From a virus: a DNA stretch of 64,000 nucleotides. Position numbers and translations under genes: made by a program. The notes below the pieces were generated by a model that saw only the letters and a program-made list of their open reading frames with translations, was not told the origin of the DNA and did not search any database. The DNA lies in the IMG/VR virus record IMGVR_UViG_3300045988_181101, one strand, 5' to 3'. Positions 18,139-23,436 of the stretch are shown here, one piece after another; the first letter of the stretch is position 1, and each line of letters opens with the position of its first letter.

Positions 18139-18951
18139 TTACTTAATCGCCGAATCTAAAAACTTATCAATTAAATCATCGATTTCTTTATATCTTCTTA
18201 CTCTCATCCAATCTTTTTCTAATACTTTTTTCTTTGTGCCCATAATAGCGCCAAAAATAGCTGCATTAGTATCTGTATCTTCACCAAGATTTACAACTCG
18301 GCATAAATCTTCAAAGAGAGTAGAATTTTTGTTCTCTCGTGCTAAATAATTATCAATTACGAGATTATATGTATTTATAACATCACCAGCATTTTGATAA
18401 TTATTTACTTCAAGATTTTCTGTTGGTAAATCTCGTAACAATTTTTTAAGTACGCAACAAAAATCAGAACCAAACTTAAAACAATTCTTATTATTGTGAG
18501 TATAACTACAAAACATTTCAAAAAATTCTTTCGTATAATCATCAGAATCATTCAGAGTAACTATTGCTATAGGAAGTGAATAAAATAAAGCACCGTTACC
18601 CATTCTATCACTTTCTTTGCATCCTCCTTGTTGAATTGATCGACAAGTTTGTCCTCCTATATCAAAACAATAACTTCCAGCATTAAAACCTTTATCTTTA
18701 TACCATAAATTTAAGTTTTTTCTGAATTGTTTAAATCTTTCAAGATTGGTTTTACCTTTATAAGAAAAAGCTTCAATCAAACAAAGTAAAATAGATGTAT
18801 CATCCGACCAAGTTCCTGTTATTTGATTATGAAATCCTCCTGAAGAAAAATCATTACAATGAAATGATCCTTCTTTTCTAAATTCAAAAGGAACTCCAAG
18901 TACATCACCTATAATATAAGCCCTGATACTATTTTTTATTTTTTCTTTCAT
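18139..18951 (-). CDS. ADP-ribosylglycohydrolase (ARH/DraG family)
   Basis: Three family motifs are present: IIGDVLGVPFEF, WSDDTSILL and GEDTDTNAAIFGAIMG. The start is placed at MKEKIKN (ATG 18949-18951). The track gives an alternative start at 18990. Confidence 0.85.
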   Translation of the reverse strand: MKEKIKNSIRAYIIGDVLGVPFEFRKEGSFHCNDFSSGGFHNQITGTWSDDTSILLCLIEAFSYKGKTNLERFKQFRKNLNLWYKDKGFNAGSYCFDIGGQTCRSIQQGGCKESDRMGNGALFYSLPIAIVTLNDSDDYTKEFFEMFCSYTHNNKNCFKFGSDFCCVLKKLLRDLPTENLEVNNYQNAGDVINTYNLVIDNYLARENKNSTLFEDLCRVVNLGEDTDTNAAIFGAIMGTKKKVLEKDWMRVRRYKEIDDLIDKFLDSAIK

Positions 18952-19085
18952 TGTCAGTAAATTTCTTTGCATTCTTAATTGCTGTTTCAACCATCTTTTC
19001 AGTTAATTCTTTTCTCTCTTCTTCAGTCGCTCTATGAACAATACTTACACCACTTGTATCATTCCATCTTGAATTTTTTCTCATA
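18930..19085 (-). CDS. small hypothetical protein (51 aa)
   Basis: Hand-translated MRKNSRWNDTSGVSIVHRATEEERKELTEK..., preceded by a promoter box at 19106-19114. It falls below the track size cutoff. Confidence 0.3.
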
Positions 19086-19105
19086 ACTTTTCTTTTTAAT
19101 TATCT

Positions 19106-21492: not shown

Positions 21493-21597
21493 AATTCAAA
21501 TTATTAATAAATACAAAAAGATAGTCCTTAAATAGAGCTCCTCAGCACAGGCCAATTCCTTGCAGGAAATATCTAATAAAGACTATCTTACGAACTT

Positions 21598-23436
21598 TTA
21601 ATGAAGTTGTAGACGGTACTTTGTTTGTTTCAAAGTAGCTAAGAAGTCCTCTATCCAAGACATTTCACCAACATAATCAATGTTATCTTTGATAGCTTCA
21701 TGGAAATCTTTTGTACGTTCAATGATTAAATCAATCAATTCAATAGGTTCGTTTTCTTCAATCTCTTCACCATTAACTTCATCATCTCCAAAACGACCAA
21801 ATCCACTTTGACCGGCTTCCATTATCTTATCTTCGTAATCAGATAATTCATCAATTAAATCATCAAGATAAACATGTTTAGAATTATCTAATTCTCCCCA
21901 ATGAATATTTTTCGTTCTTGTTTTTACTCCTTCAAGAAAATTAGCATAATCTACAAAAACACCGTACATCAAATCTTTTGCTTTTTCAATTTGAGAACCA
22001 TCGTCTAAAGAAGGATCACTCCAGGCTTCTTCTCTAATCTCATTAATGCCCCAAGATTTTTCAATTTCTTCCTGTTGATCAAGAACGTTATTAATATCAA
22101 GTTTGCCGGATTCTCTCATCTCATTAACTAACGATTTAAACATTTGAGCTTGATCTAAATCATTAAAATCAATTAGAATTTTAAATCCATCTACAGCTTT
22201 TTCAATTTCATTCTCACCAACACCATCACCTTGAGGTCCTACTGCATCTTTTTCAAGATCTTCTTTTTGTAATGGAGTAATGTCTTCACAAGACATTGTT
22301 TTTTCAATCCAATCTTTGGGGAGTTCATTTTCAAGTCCTAATTCTTTTGCTCTTTTTTTTATCCAAGCTTTTACTTTACTTTCAGACATATCTGAAGCTC
22401 CTACCAATCGAATTGCATCTTTCAAATCTTGAGAATTTCTAATAGGATACTTACCATTAGGCATGGCTTCACCTCTTTCTGCAAGATCCTTTCTTTCTTT
22501 ATGAGAAAAATAGGTTTTATTGTTTGCTTTTTCAATCTCATCGGGATGTTGTTCACAATAAGATTTAAACACTTCTTCTGAAATATCTCCATTAAAATAT
22601 GCTTTTTGAATTTTGATTAAATTTGAAGGTTTTTGTTCAAGACCAAGAATTTTCTTCAAATTATCTTTCATATCAAAAATAAATTCATAATCGTCTAACT
22701 CTGTTCCTGGTTCAATCCAAGCACTTCCAATTTCTTCTTCAGAATCAACAACTACAAAAGCAGGGGTTTCTTCACTTACATAACCTACAAAATAATGAAT
22801 TTCAAAATCCTTACCTGTTGCAACAGCTACTTCAGCAAGAATATCTTCAGGAATATCTATACCGGTTTCTTCAAGCAACTCTCTTTGTGCTGCAGTACGA
22901 AAATCTTCGCCAGCATCAACATGTCCTCCAGGAATACACCATTCGTCTGTATGATTACCTTGATCTCCAGCTCTTTGAAGAATCAATAATTTAGAACCTC
23001 TAAAAAGTAAAACATCTGCATAACGAACTTTACCTGTTTTAGCTTTAATGATGTCATTATAAATAGATTTAGAAATTTGTTTATCTTTATACATTATCTT
23101 AAAATCATATAAAGATTTCATATCTTTCAATATATCTACAATTTCTGCATCATTTTCGAGTTTTATCATAGATTTCTCTATAGAAGTTTTCTCTTTATAA
23201 GCTTCTGAAATATTCTTAACATGATCTGAAATAAACTTCTTATTACGTTCTTCAACTTCCTTTCTATCTTCATCACTTAACGTTGAAATACTTTTCAAAA
23301 CACTGTTCTGTTCTGAAAATTCTGCAGCAAGTTCATCTACTCTTAAAGAATTTTTATATGACTTTTCAAGCAACTGCTTGTATTCTTGAATCTTATCTTC
23401 TTTTGATTGAAGACCTAAAAACTTTTTTATATTCAT
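21598..23436 (-). CDS. Nudix hydrolase-domain fusion protein (C-terminal Dps/ferritin-like region tentative)
   Basis: Nudix box GGHVDAGEDFRTAAQRELLEETGI (nt 22861-22929). Central motif MPNGKYPIRNSQDLKDAIRLVG...KAWIKKRAKELGL. The C-terminal KNIHWGELDNSKHVYLDDLIDELSDYEDKIMEAG is Dps-like. Confidence 0.8.
   Translation of the reverse strand: MNIKKFLGLQSKEDKIQEYKQLLEKSYKNSLRVDELAAEFSEQNSVLKSISTLSDEDRKEVEERNKKFISDHVKNISEAYKEKTSIEKSMIKLENDAEIVDILKDMKSLYDFKIMYKDKQISKSIYNDIIKAKTGKVRYADVLLFRGSKLLILQRAGDQGNHTDEWCIPGGHVDAGEDFRTAAQRELLEETGIDIPEDILAEVAVATGKDFEIHYFVGYVSEETPAFVVVDSEEEIGSAWIEPGTELDDYEFIFDMKDNLKKILGLEQKPSNLIKIQKAYFNGDISEEVFKSYCEQHPDEIEKANNKTYFSHKERKDLAERGEAMPNGKYPIRNSQDLKDAIRLVGASDMSESKVKAWIKKRAKELGLENELPKDWIEKTMSCEDITPLQKEDLEKDAVGPQGDGVGENEIEKAVDGFKILIDFNDLDQAQMFKSLVNEMRESGKLDINNVLDQQEEIEKSWGINEIREEAWSDPSLDDGSQIEKAKDLMYGVFVDYANFLEGVKTRTKNIHWGELDNSKHVYLDDLIDELSDYEDKIMEAGQSGFGRFGDDEVNGEEIEENEPIELIDLIIERTKDFHEAIKDNIDYVGEMSWIEDFLATLKQTKYRLQLH

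Follow-up and report, generated by a model that had tools for sequence, protein, structure and literature searches.

We analyzed a 64-kb stretch of viral DNA (the window; IMG/VR record IMGVR_UViG_3300045988_181101; all coordinates are relative to that stretch) and found that its head module encodes a 780-amino acid (aa) protein with a C-terminal ADP-ribosyltransferase (ART) domain, followed by a conserved 51-aa open reading frame (ORF) and by an ADP-ribosylhydrolase (ARH). On balance, we favor the view that these three genes specify a capsid-packaged, injected toxin together with its immunity cassette, in the manner of Bxa-Bsi-BAH. In that system, Bxa is an ART encoded in the head module of a Bacteroides stercoris prophage, which ADP-ribosylates arginine promiscuously and kills Escherichia coli; BAH is an adjacent ARH with the catalytic residue Glu15, which reverses the modification made by Bxa; and Bsi is a small adjacent protein that binds and blocks Bxa (Alexei et al. 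2024; PMC11699363). A preliminary description of the window, made from the letters alone, had singled out the ART and ARH genes and a Nudix gene next to them as a consecutive writer, eraser, and Nudix trio. The three ADP-ribose-chemistry folds proved to be real and their catalytic residues intact in profile searches for all three proteins and, for the ART, also by structure; the profile hidden Markov model (HMM) searches and structure prediction that had been suggested as a check recognized the ARH and the Nudix protein by Pfam and the ART by a family profile, an AlphaFold2 (AF2) model, and Foldseek. The genes are indeed neighbors on the same strand, but the conserved 51-aa ORF between the ART and ARH genes had been overlooked. 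The genes of the putative cassette and their domains are the following.

19150-21492, minus strand: ART-bearing polyvalent protein, 780 aa (PBECR1 plus C-terminal ART)
20926-21216, minus strand: PBECR1 domain, residues 93-189 (Pfam PF18809, 1e-10, 42.4 bits against a cut-off of 27.6)
19153-19797, minus strand: R-S-ExE ADP-ribosyltransferase domain, residues 566-780
19423-19425, minus strand: R690
19324-19332, minus strand: S721-F-S
19225-19233, minus strand: E754/E756
18929-19084, minus strand: 51-aa ORF between the ART and ARH genes, conserved in related loci
18139-18951, minus strand: ARH, 270 aa, DraG/Tri1-type (Pfam ADP_ribosyl_GH); alternative start codon TTG upstream at 18990

The preliminary description had taken the product of 19150-21492 for an ART. 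Its R-S-ExE signature is confirmed, but the ART makes up only residues ~566-780 of a protein that has a PBECR1 domain at residues 93-189. Because direct searches of the C terminus gave nothing beyond a marginal phmmer match to Lmo0066 (0.011), we used family-level evidence for the ART. An exhaustive HMMER search with residues 566-780 gathered 102 representative clusters with the domain, which stands at or near the C-terminal end in nearly all of them, and PF03496 (ADPrib_exo_Tox) was matched by 35 of the 89 homologues scanned. A family profile built from 40 sequences matched the toxins Vip2 (1.2e-21), Lmo0066 (3e-15), and Tre1 (1e-4), with further matches to CPILE-a, CDTa, C2-I, iota Ia, Certhrax, SpvB, C3, and ExoS/T. 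In the profile alignments, R690 corresponds to the toxin arginine (the 'YRW' of Vip2), S721-F-S to the 'STS' motif, and E754-x-E756 to ExE (the 'EKE' of Vip2); among the aligned homologues, R690 and E756 are invariant, and conservation is 90% or higher at S721 and E754. The AF2 model of the domain has a predicted local distance difference test (pLDDT) score of 94.2 and a predicted template modeling (TM) score of 0.91, and Foldseek matched it to C2-I, CDTa, C3, and Vip2 (~1e-11, TM ~0.6-0.7), and also to 8za7_B. Further, the orthologue in one relative (L038) matched both PF03496 (1.1e-16) and PBECR1 (1.2e-11) directly. The viral models nearest to the domain are gut-phage proteins labeled 'Mono-ADP-ribosyltransferase C3', with ARTs fused to MuF, portal, and minor capsid proteins and T4-type Alt coming next; we note that UniProt and BFVD already hold the ART of this lineage under a machine annotation as ART. 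We conclude that the domain has the fold of the R-S-ExE clade (C2/C3/Vip2/Alt) with intact catalytic residues. Since ExE is the motif of arginine-modifying ARTs (PMC8120803), arginine is the predicted acceptor.

The 780-aa protein consists of a conserved ~30-aa leader, the PBECR1 domain, a K/E-rich charged middle region, and the ART. PBECR1 is a predicted RNase domain with a barnase/EndoU/colicin-E5/RelE-like fold, and its place is taken by MuF_C (1.2e-19) in proteins that otherwise share 94% identity with the window protein where the two align (76% of the query), the swapped module lying at residues 105-204 in P0071. Because the first ~30 residues are left unchanged by this exchange, the leader may be capsid-targeting. 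Kinase-PolyVal and other modules are found in further homologues. The idea, put forward in the preliminary description, that the gene belongs with the polyvalent proteins is thus well founded, given the PBECR1-ART fusion, the PBECR1/MuF_C swap, and the Kinase-PolyVal module of homologues: what defines such a protein, namely at least two unrelated effector domains in a late-gene-linked polypeptide, with a polyvalent-specific domain among its parts, is found here as PBECR1 plus ART in the head module. As separate observations, one homologue (P0121) has two ART domains, and one relative (L007) has tandem ART genes (9092-10336 and 10403-12724). The window's ART protein has two copies of the motif S-[VI]-G-x-x-R-x-x-S-N-G-x-x-Y-x-K-x-x-x-G-(S)-W-K-P (21352-21423 and 20632-20700, minus strand); similar copies are present in the ART proteins of relatives, and the regular expression SNGxxYxKxxxGW matched the ART protein only.

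The gene at 18139-18951 was correctly recognized as an ARH by its motifs. The protein matches Pfam ADP_ribosyl_GH (3.5e-27, 96.2 bits against a cut-off of 26.2) and the PHROG ARH family (4.7e-36), and its E-D-D and G223-E-D-T-D-T motifs belong to a catalytic set (E23, D50/D51, D97, and G223-E-D-T-D-T) that is invariant or nearly so in 19 homologues, the last of these motifs containing the C-terminal D-x-D-T metal site. Its best solved relatives are Tri1 (6dre_A, 2.9e-17), the Thermus thermophilus ARH, Lmo0067 (8za7_A, 3.3e-13), and DraG. The best NCBIfam models are likewise Tri1 (ADP-ribosylarginine hydrolase, 7e-20) and DraG (1.3e-12), both far below their equivalog cut-offs, with 71 bits against the 490 required in the case of Tri1. 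Judged by sequence, the ARH resembles the hydrolase half of Tri1 without being an orthologue of Tri1. DraG and Tri1 are protein-Arg-ADPr (ADP-ribose) hydrolases with an E-D-D signature (PMC8120803), and the chemistry of the two window enzymes agrees, because ExE fits an arginine ART and E-D-D fits an arginine hydrolase. That the two form a pair is further argued by the fact that the top solved relatives of the ARH, Tri1 and Lmo0067, are the partners of Tre1 and Lmo0066, the very toxins matched by the ART profile; the likeness to the Tre1-Tri1 toxin-immunity pair drawn in the preliminary description is therefore upheld. Its comparison with DarT-DarG was the wrong analogy, as the eraser of that system is a macrodomain acting on DNA. 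PADLOC returned no known defense-system model for the ART or the ARHs.

The stop codon of the 51-aa ORF overlaps the ATG of the ARH gene (18951) by 23 nt. Of the 20 ARH-bearing related loci, 19 have an ORF of 51-57 aa at the equivalent place; a counterpart was independently gene-called in three more divergent relatives, and the ORF is syntenic in ~22 loci overall. It diverges fast (16-67% identity across the aligned relatives). At a guess, and by analogy, the 51-aa protein may be a Bsi-like ART inhibitor, acting as non-enzymatic immunity, or an adaptor.

We compared the window with 24 related IMG/VR loci and three further metagenomic loci. The gene order in the IMG/VR loci is portal, MuF-like, Hint, Nudix, ART, (small ORF), ARH, protease, scaffold, and major capsid protein, except that L021, L022, and L023 are without the ARH, and the three further loci agree with this order across the genes they cover. 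The related-locus scan of the ART recovered the same phage lineage only, from IMG/VR, and a family-pattern scan across the genomes of 185,579 species matched no relative, with no prophage copies evident.

The Nudix gene precedes the ART gene in coding order, and its product has the following parts.

21598-23436, minus strand: Nudix/Dps-like protein, 612 aa (Pfam NUDIX; AF2 model)
22708-23025, minus strand: Nudix catalytic domain, residues 138-243 (Pfam NUDIX 2.6e-17, 63.5 bits against a cut-off of 21.1)
22858-22929, minus strand: Nudix box GX5EX7REUXEEXGU, residues 171-193, exact
21601-21972, minus strand: Dps-like/DUF5856 four-helix bundle, residues 489-612, 124 aa (DUF5856 8e-06 to 2e-05; phrog_858; AF2)

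The textbook Nudix box seen by eye is thus exact and is backed by Pfam. In the AF2 model (pLDDT 72), an N-terminal helical hairpin (residues 1-134) is followed by the Nudix fold, a partly disordered middle, and the C-terminal bundle, with helices at residues 489-510, 520-546, 564-582, and 586-611. In BFVD, the bundle matched the structures of crAss-like phage models labeled 'DpsA' and 'DNA binding protein'; by sequence, the Dps-like C terminus had no match in the PDB. The modeled bundle suggests that the Nudix protein may associate with DNA inside the capsid, and the protein is probably a further cargo protein associated with DNA. In the middle of the protein (22399-22467, minus strand), we note the motif AMPNGKYPIRNSQDLKDAIRLVG, which is largely invariant in 20 homologues and matched no known family.

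The preliminary description had this enzyme clear ADP-ribose or NAD-derived products, a role that the comparisons do not bear out, since the Nudix gene is not tied to the ART and ARH and its domain is of the MutT/NUDT1/RppH kind, with no ADP-ribose-specific signature. The nearest solved or curated relatives are of the NUDT1, MutT, and RppH types (6e-07; 4e-08), and similarity to ADP-ribose pyrophosphatases is weaker (1v8i, 1e-3; NCBIfam NudE, 2.4e-4, far below its cut-off). ADP-ribose pyrophosphatases are marked by a proline downstream of the Nudix box, and no proline stands at that spacing after the window's box; going by sequence, the Nudix domain would fall outside that subfamily. The protein is kept in all 24 related loci. 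Homologues of its gene occur together with MuF-like, protease, and capsid homologues, in the same order, in Bacteroides phage DAC19 and Chryseobacterium phage MA9V-3, DAC19 having the portal gene as well, and neither an ART nor an ARH was found in the head-module stretch examined of either phage. Because these two phages have the Nudix gene without an ART or ARH in that stretch, we read it as long established in this slot of the head module, behind which the ART, small ORF, and ARH genes were inserted as a lineage-specific cassette. Further, in 13 of the 102 ART-domain clusters, the Nudix N terminus and Nudix domain (E down to 6e-29) are in the same polypeptide as the ART, a fusion confirmed by Pfam for P0165, and the Nudix head protein looks like a capsid-resident carrier for grafted toxin domains, like MuF. 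We therefore take it for a carrier or co-cargo rather than an ADP-ribose scavenger, given its presence without ART and ARH, its fusion to ART elsewhere, and its lack of an ADP-ribose-specific signature. The Nudix genes of DAC19 (L035, 11327-12007) and MA9V-3 (L034, 10556-11263), each just before the protease gene, are unannotated, and in MA9V-3, a gene directly before it (L034, 6164-10543) encodes a 1459-aa protein without a Pfam match.

The head-morphogenesis position of these genes is confirmed by profile matches of the portal, protease, and major capsid proteins. Of the two flanks named earlier, MuF and the prohead protease, the latter is secure, as are the portal and the major capsid protein, but MuF is weak (Pfam E=0.6). 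From the BACON-repeat protein to the major capsid protein, the genes form one run, all on the minus strand, in which the ART, ARH, and Nudix ORFs lie exactly where they had been placed. The other genes of the run, and one elsewhere in the window, are the following.

26770-28260, minus strand: BACON-repeat protein, 496 aa (four BACON repeats), directly upstream of the portal gene
25067-26758, minus strand: portal protein (Pfam 2e-17; phrog_12 3e-34)
between the portal and MuF-like genes, minus strand: 69-aa ORF (coding order)
23914-24864, minus strand: MuF-like minor head protein, weak (Pfam Phage_Mu_F on the C-terminal HPFCRC motif; phrog_115 0.0028)
23482-23901, minus strand: Hint-like ORF, 139 aa (Hint_2 3e-4), free-standing, just after the MuF-like gene
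17350-18129, minus strand: prohead maturation protease (phrog_1028 5e-36)
16635-17291, minus strand: probable scaffold protein (place in coding order)
15086-16606, minus strand: major capsid protein (phrog_752 3.6e-52; tblastn matches in Bacteroides phages DAC19/SJC03 and in SPO1-like phages)
60747-62669, minus strand: NAD-dependent DNA ligase

The MuF-like gene adjoins the portal gene, and this placement downstream of the portal is shared by its homologues in DAC19 and the related loci; its assignment as MuF is weak. Toxin extensions on the long MuF-like and portal genes of some relatives were considered and ruled out where Pfam matched, as the matches are LAGLIDADG or intein domains: two portal variants (L008 374-3418 and L023 761-3790) carry an intein splicing domain plus LAGLIDADG, and two MuF-like variants (L006 3358-5331 and L021 2666-5746) have LAGLIDADG matches. 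Three further long MuF-like variants had no Pfam match, and no toxin domain was found in any variant. The window's portal and MuF-like genes are intein-free. Between the head-module genes, the coding strand showed no intrinsic terminator, and scans for sigma-70 and Bacteroidetes -7 (TAnnTTTG) promoters returned matches at chance level, none of them in the intergenic gaps that matter here.

The phage is a myovirus, because it encodes a tail sheath (8889-10520). Its other genes include those for ribonucleotide reductase, helicases, its own sigma-70-family factor, RNase H, a holin, and a GIY-YIG endonuclease; there is no integrase within the 64 kb, and the phage looks to be of virulent type. Elsewhere in the window, ORFs of 120 aa or more yielded no macro or NADAR domain, no second ART, and no other ADP-ribose-related domain. 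By tblastn, the capsid protein shares ~35% identity with its counterparts in Bacteroides phages DAC19 and SJC03 and ~30% with those in SPO1-like phages. Identical or near-identical proteins are encoded by metagenomic contigs of 100-106 kb, and the lineage is very common in human-gut metagenomes, with hundreds of near-full-length contigs of that size carrying these genes. We conclude that the source phage is an abundant uncultured gut myovirus of ~104 kb, and its host is likely a member of the Bacteroidota. The BACON-repeat protein is kept in relatives and may be a virion surface or decoration protein; it, too, hints at a Bacteroidota host.

The mechanism that we propose begins in the interval between the MuF-like and prohead protease genes, which would serve as a slot for capsid cargo proteins. 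The 780-aa effector would be synthesized late, along with the head proteins, and packaged in the capsid; after injection with the DNA, it would modify host proteins early in the next infection, with arginine as the predicted acceptor, and its RNase-like PBECR1 domain would act on host RNA. In the producing cell, the 51-aa protein may block the ART active site, like Bsi, and the ARH would erase ADP-ribosyl-arginine, as BAH does for Bxa and Tri1 for Tre1. The small ORF and the ARH gene would be a translationally coupled pair, which would follow the ART gene because the ART is potentially lethal to the producing cell. The Nudix/Dps-like protein would be an older cargo of the head module, whose N-terminal part carries the ART domain in other phages.

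Several points weigh against an injected toxin with an immunity cassette. Packaging and injection are proposed by position and analogy. The window's ART C terminus had no direct match in Pfam, PHROG, or NCBIfam. Searches detected no homologues of the 51-aa ORF, and Bsi, of which residues up to 92 are cited, is longer than the 51 aa of the window protein. The alignment of the ARH with Tri1 begins at Tri1 residue 70, so that the ARH is without the toxin-occluding N-terminal extension of Tri1. Moreover, three of the most divergent relatives (L021-L023) have the Nudix and ART genes and no ARH in the ~10 kb that flank the ART on each side; an unrelated ORF of 54-58 aa follows the ART in each, and in L022, a repeat-rich protein then follows as well. 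Because these loci keep the ART without the ARH, either the ARH is not obligatory or another protein replaces it there. Lastly, Bxa, with the same head-module layout of ART, ARH, and small ORF, is reported to act on mammalian epithelial cells after release (PMC11699363), so that injection is not the sole delivery route with a precedent. This last point leads to a different reading, in which the ART protein would be a lysis-released fitness factor or interbacterial toxin acting on mammalian cells or neighboring bacteria, with the ARH and small ORF guarding the producer until lysis. We consider this unlikely, as the phage looks to be of virulent type (with ribonucleotide reductase, helicases, a ligase, and a sigma factor, but without an integrase gene in the 64 kb), the scan of species' genomes matched no relative and made no prophage copy evident, and fusions to PBECR1, MuF_C, and Kinase-PolyVal are the signature of injected polyvalent proteins (PMC5512222).

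The pathway of three enzymes implied by the preliminary description, in which the ART writes, the ARH erases, and the Nudix enzyme clears ADP-ribose or NAD-derived products, would account for the adjacency of the genes on one strand and for the Nudix-ART fusions in 13 of 102 clusters, and it has a parallel in that some phage Nudix enzymes, e.g. T4 NudE, use ADP-ribose (PMC9503650). We nevertheless hold it to be decidedly unlikely: the head-module Nudix gene occurs without ART and ARH in the stretches examined of DAC19 and MA9V-3, it persists with the ART and without the ARH in L021-L023, the ADP-ribose pyrophosphatases (~1e-3) are weaker relatives than NUDT1, MutT, and RppH, and the fusions are equally explained by a head-resident Nudix carrier, like MuF. 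A role of the ARH that is independent of the phage ART, namely counter-defense by stripping off the ADP-ribose set by host defense ARTs, would agree with the argument that phage ADP-ribosylglycohydrolases (ARGs), whose domains are described as rare in phages, target macromolecular ADPr adducts (PMC9503650), and with ARH homologues that occur without an ART on Bacteroidales mobile elements and beside McrBC. Within the lineage, however, the ARH is seen solely immediately downstream of the ART, coupled to it via the overlapping small ORF, and its nearest characterized relatives are cognate immunity proteins of ART toxins, which makes such a role very unlikely. ART-ARG toxin-antitoxin pairs have also been noted in Aeromonas phages (PMC9503650), and, compared with DAC19 and MA9V-3, the ART cassette is an insertion peculiar to this lineage, so that the genes might be a toxin-antitoxin or superinfection-exclusion module outside the virion that chanced into the late region. 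This we regard as highly improbable, because the toxin domain ends a 780-aa multidomain polyvalent protein and is not a small stand-alone toxin, its position between head genes is strictly conserved, and fusions of the ART domain with head-associated Nudix, MuF, or portal proteins recur.

The nearest relatives of the phage ARH outside the phage lineage are orphan ARHs that are 42-49% identical to it. They ride on ~6-kb integrative elements in Parabacteroides/Bacteroidales chromosomes, which carry an integrase, an excisionase-like HTH_17 protein, a Phage_CRI replication protein, T5orf172, and one or two ARHs (L025-L031 and L033, with the ARH at ~8001-8810 etc.; one protein is named Parabacteroides), and another lies beside McrBC (L037, 3561-4448). 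No ART was found near the orphan ARHs in those loci by the ART family HMM. In a rough neighbor-joining tree, the orphan ARHs nest with those of the phages and stand well apart from generic Firmicute ARHs. None of the orphan ARHs matched a known defense model. It is conceivable, if doubtful, that they are captured erasers that shield the cell or a satellite from the injected ART, with the tandem ARTs, N-terminal swaps, and ARH loss or replacement of the phages as the counter-move; if so, this would be defense by theft of the phage's own immunity gene. ARG-centered anti-viral systems have been predicted (PMC9503650).

Among known systems, Bxa-BAH-Bsi is like the proposed toxin and immunity cassette in that a Bacteroidales phage encodes, in its head region, a large multidomain protein with a C-terminal arginine-type ART, with an ARH and small ORF(s) adjoining it. 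They differ in that the N terminus of Bxa is MuF itself, whereas the window has a separate MuF-like gene and its ART is on a PBECR1 polyvalent protein (MuF_C in variants); in that Bxa comes from a prophage, whereas the window's phage is a large virulent-type myovirus; and in that Bsi is unlike the window's small ORF, which is shorter and unrelated, the Bxa system having been compared by description only. A Nudix/Dps-like gene before the ART and the overlap coupling of the small ORF and ARH are further differences of the window. Tre1-Tri1 of the Serratia type VI secretion system and Lmo0066-Lmo0067 of Listeria (8ZA7, entitled 'ART-ARH type toxin effector-immunity protein pair' in the PDB) share with the window an R-S-E ART toxin and a DraG-like ARH immunity protein and are the best solved relatives of its pair; identity to them is low, and the ART matches at the profile level only. 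Tre1 and Lmo0066 are delivered between bacteria by secretion systems, unlike the phage injection predicted here, and Tri1 also blocks Tre1 via the N-terminal extension that the window ARH does not have. T4 Alt, too, is an R-S-E ART of a myovirus with capsid delivery (predicted in the window's case), and Alt-type proteins are structural neighbors of the window's domain. Unlike the window protein, Alt has no PBECR1 and no dedicated neighboring eraser, and its packaging uses a protease-cleaved targeting sequence, none of which was identified in the window protein.

With the polyvalent proteins and MuF polymorphic toxins, the window protein shares the plan of a late-gene-linked, multidomain effector in which PBECR1, MuF_C, and Kinase-PolyVal are swapped between close relatives. 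To our knowledge, no immunity genes have been described for polyvalent proteins. In the 2017 survey, the ARTs of polyvalent proteins were of the H-Y-D (Tox-ART-HYD2) clade, and Alt/VIP2 R-S-E ARTs were not in genuine polyvalent proteins (Iyer et al. 2017; PMC5512222), whereas the window protein has an R-S-ExE ART fused to PBECR1. Head-associated phage Nudix proteins of the T4 NudE-like type resemble the window's in being encoded among head genes or fused to head proteins in myoviruses; the window's protein differs in its fusion to a Dps-like/DUF5856 bundle and, elsewhere, to ART. ARTs and Nudix proteins that are enriched and head-associated in myoviruses, and described as head-packaged, are thus already known (Iyer et al. 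2022; PMC9503650), as is a head-module cassette of ART, ARH, and small immunity protein (PMC11699363); what is new here is an R-S-ExE ART on a PBECR1 polyvalent protein, with a separate MuF-like gene, an overlap-coupled small ORF and ARH, and a Nudix/Dps-like neighbor, in a virulent-type phage. If the reading as an injected toxin with an immunity cassette is true, Bxa/BAH logic reaches from temperate MuF-toxins to a large virulent-type myovirus, and PBECR1 plus an R-S-E ART is a combination that the 2017 survey had excluded. The leads that follow are the 51-aa candidate ART inhibitor, the Nudix/Dps-like protein as an alternative toxin carrier, and the orphan ARHs as possible anti-phage erasers. 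The general picture drawn by Iyer et al. (2017, 2022) and Alexei et al. (2024) is unchanged.

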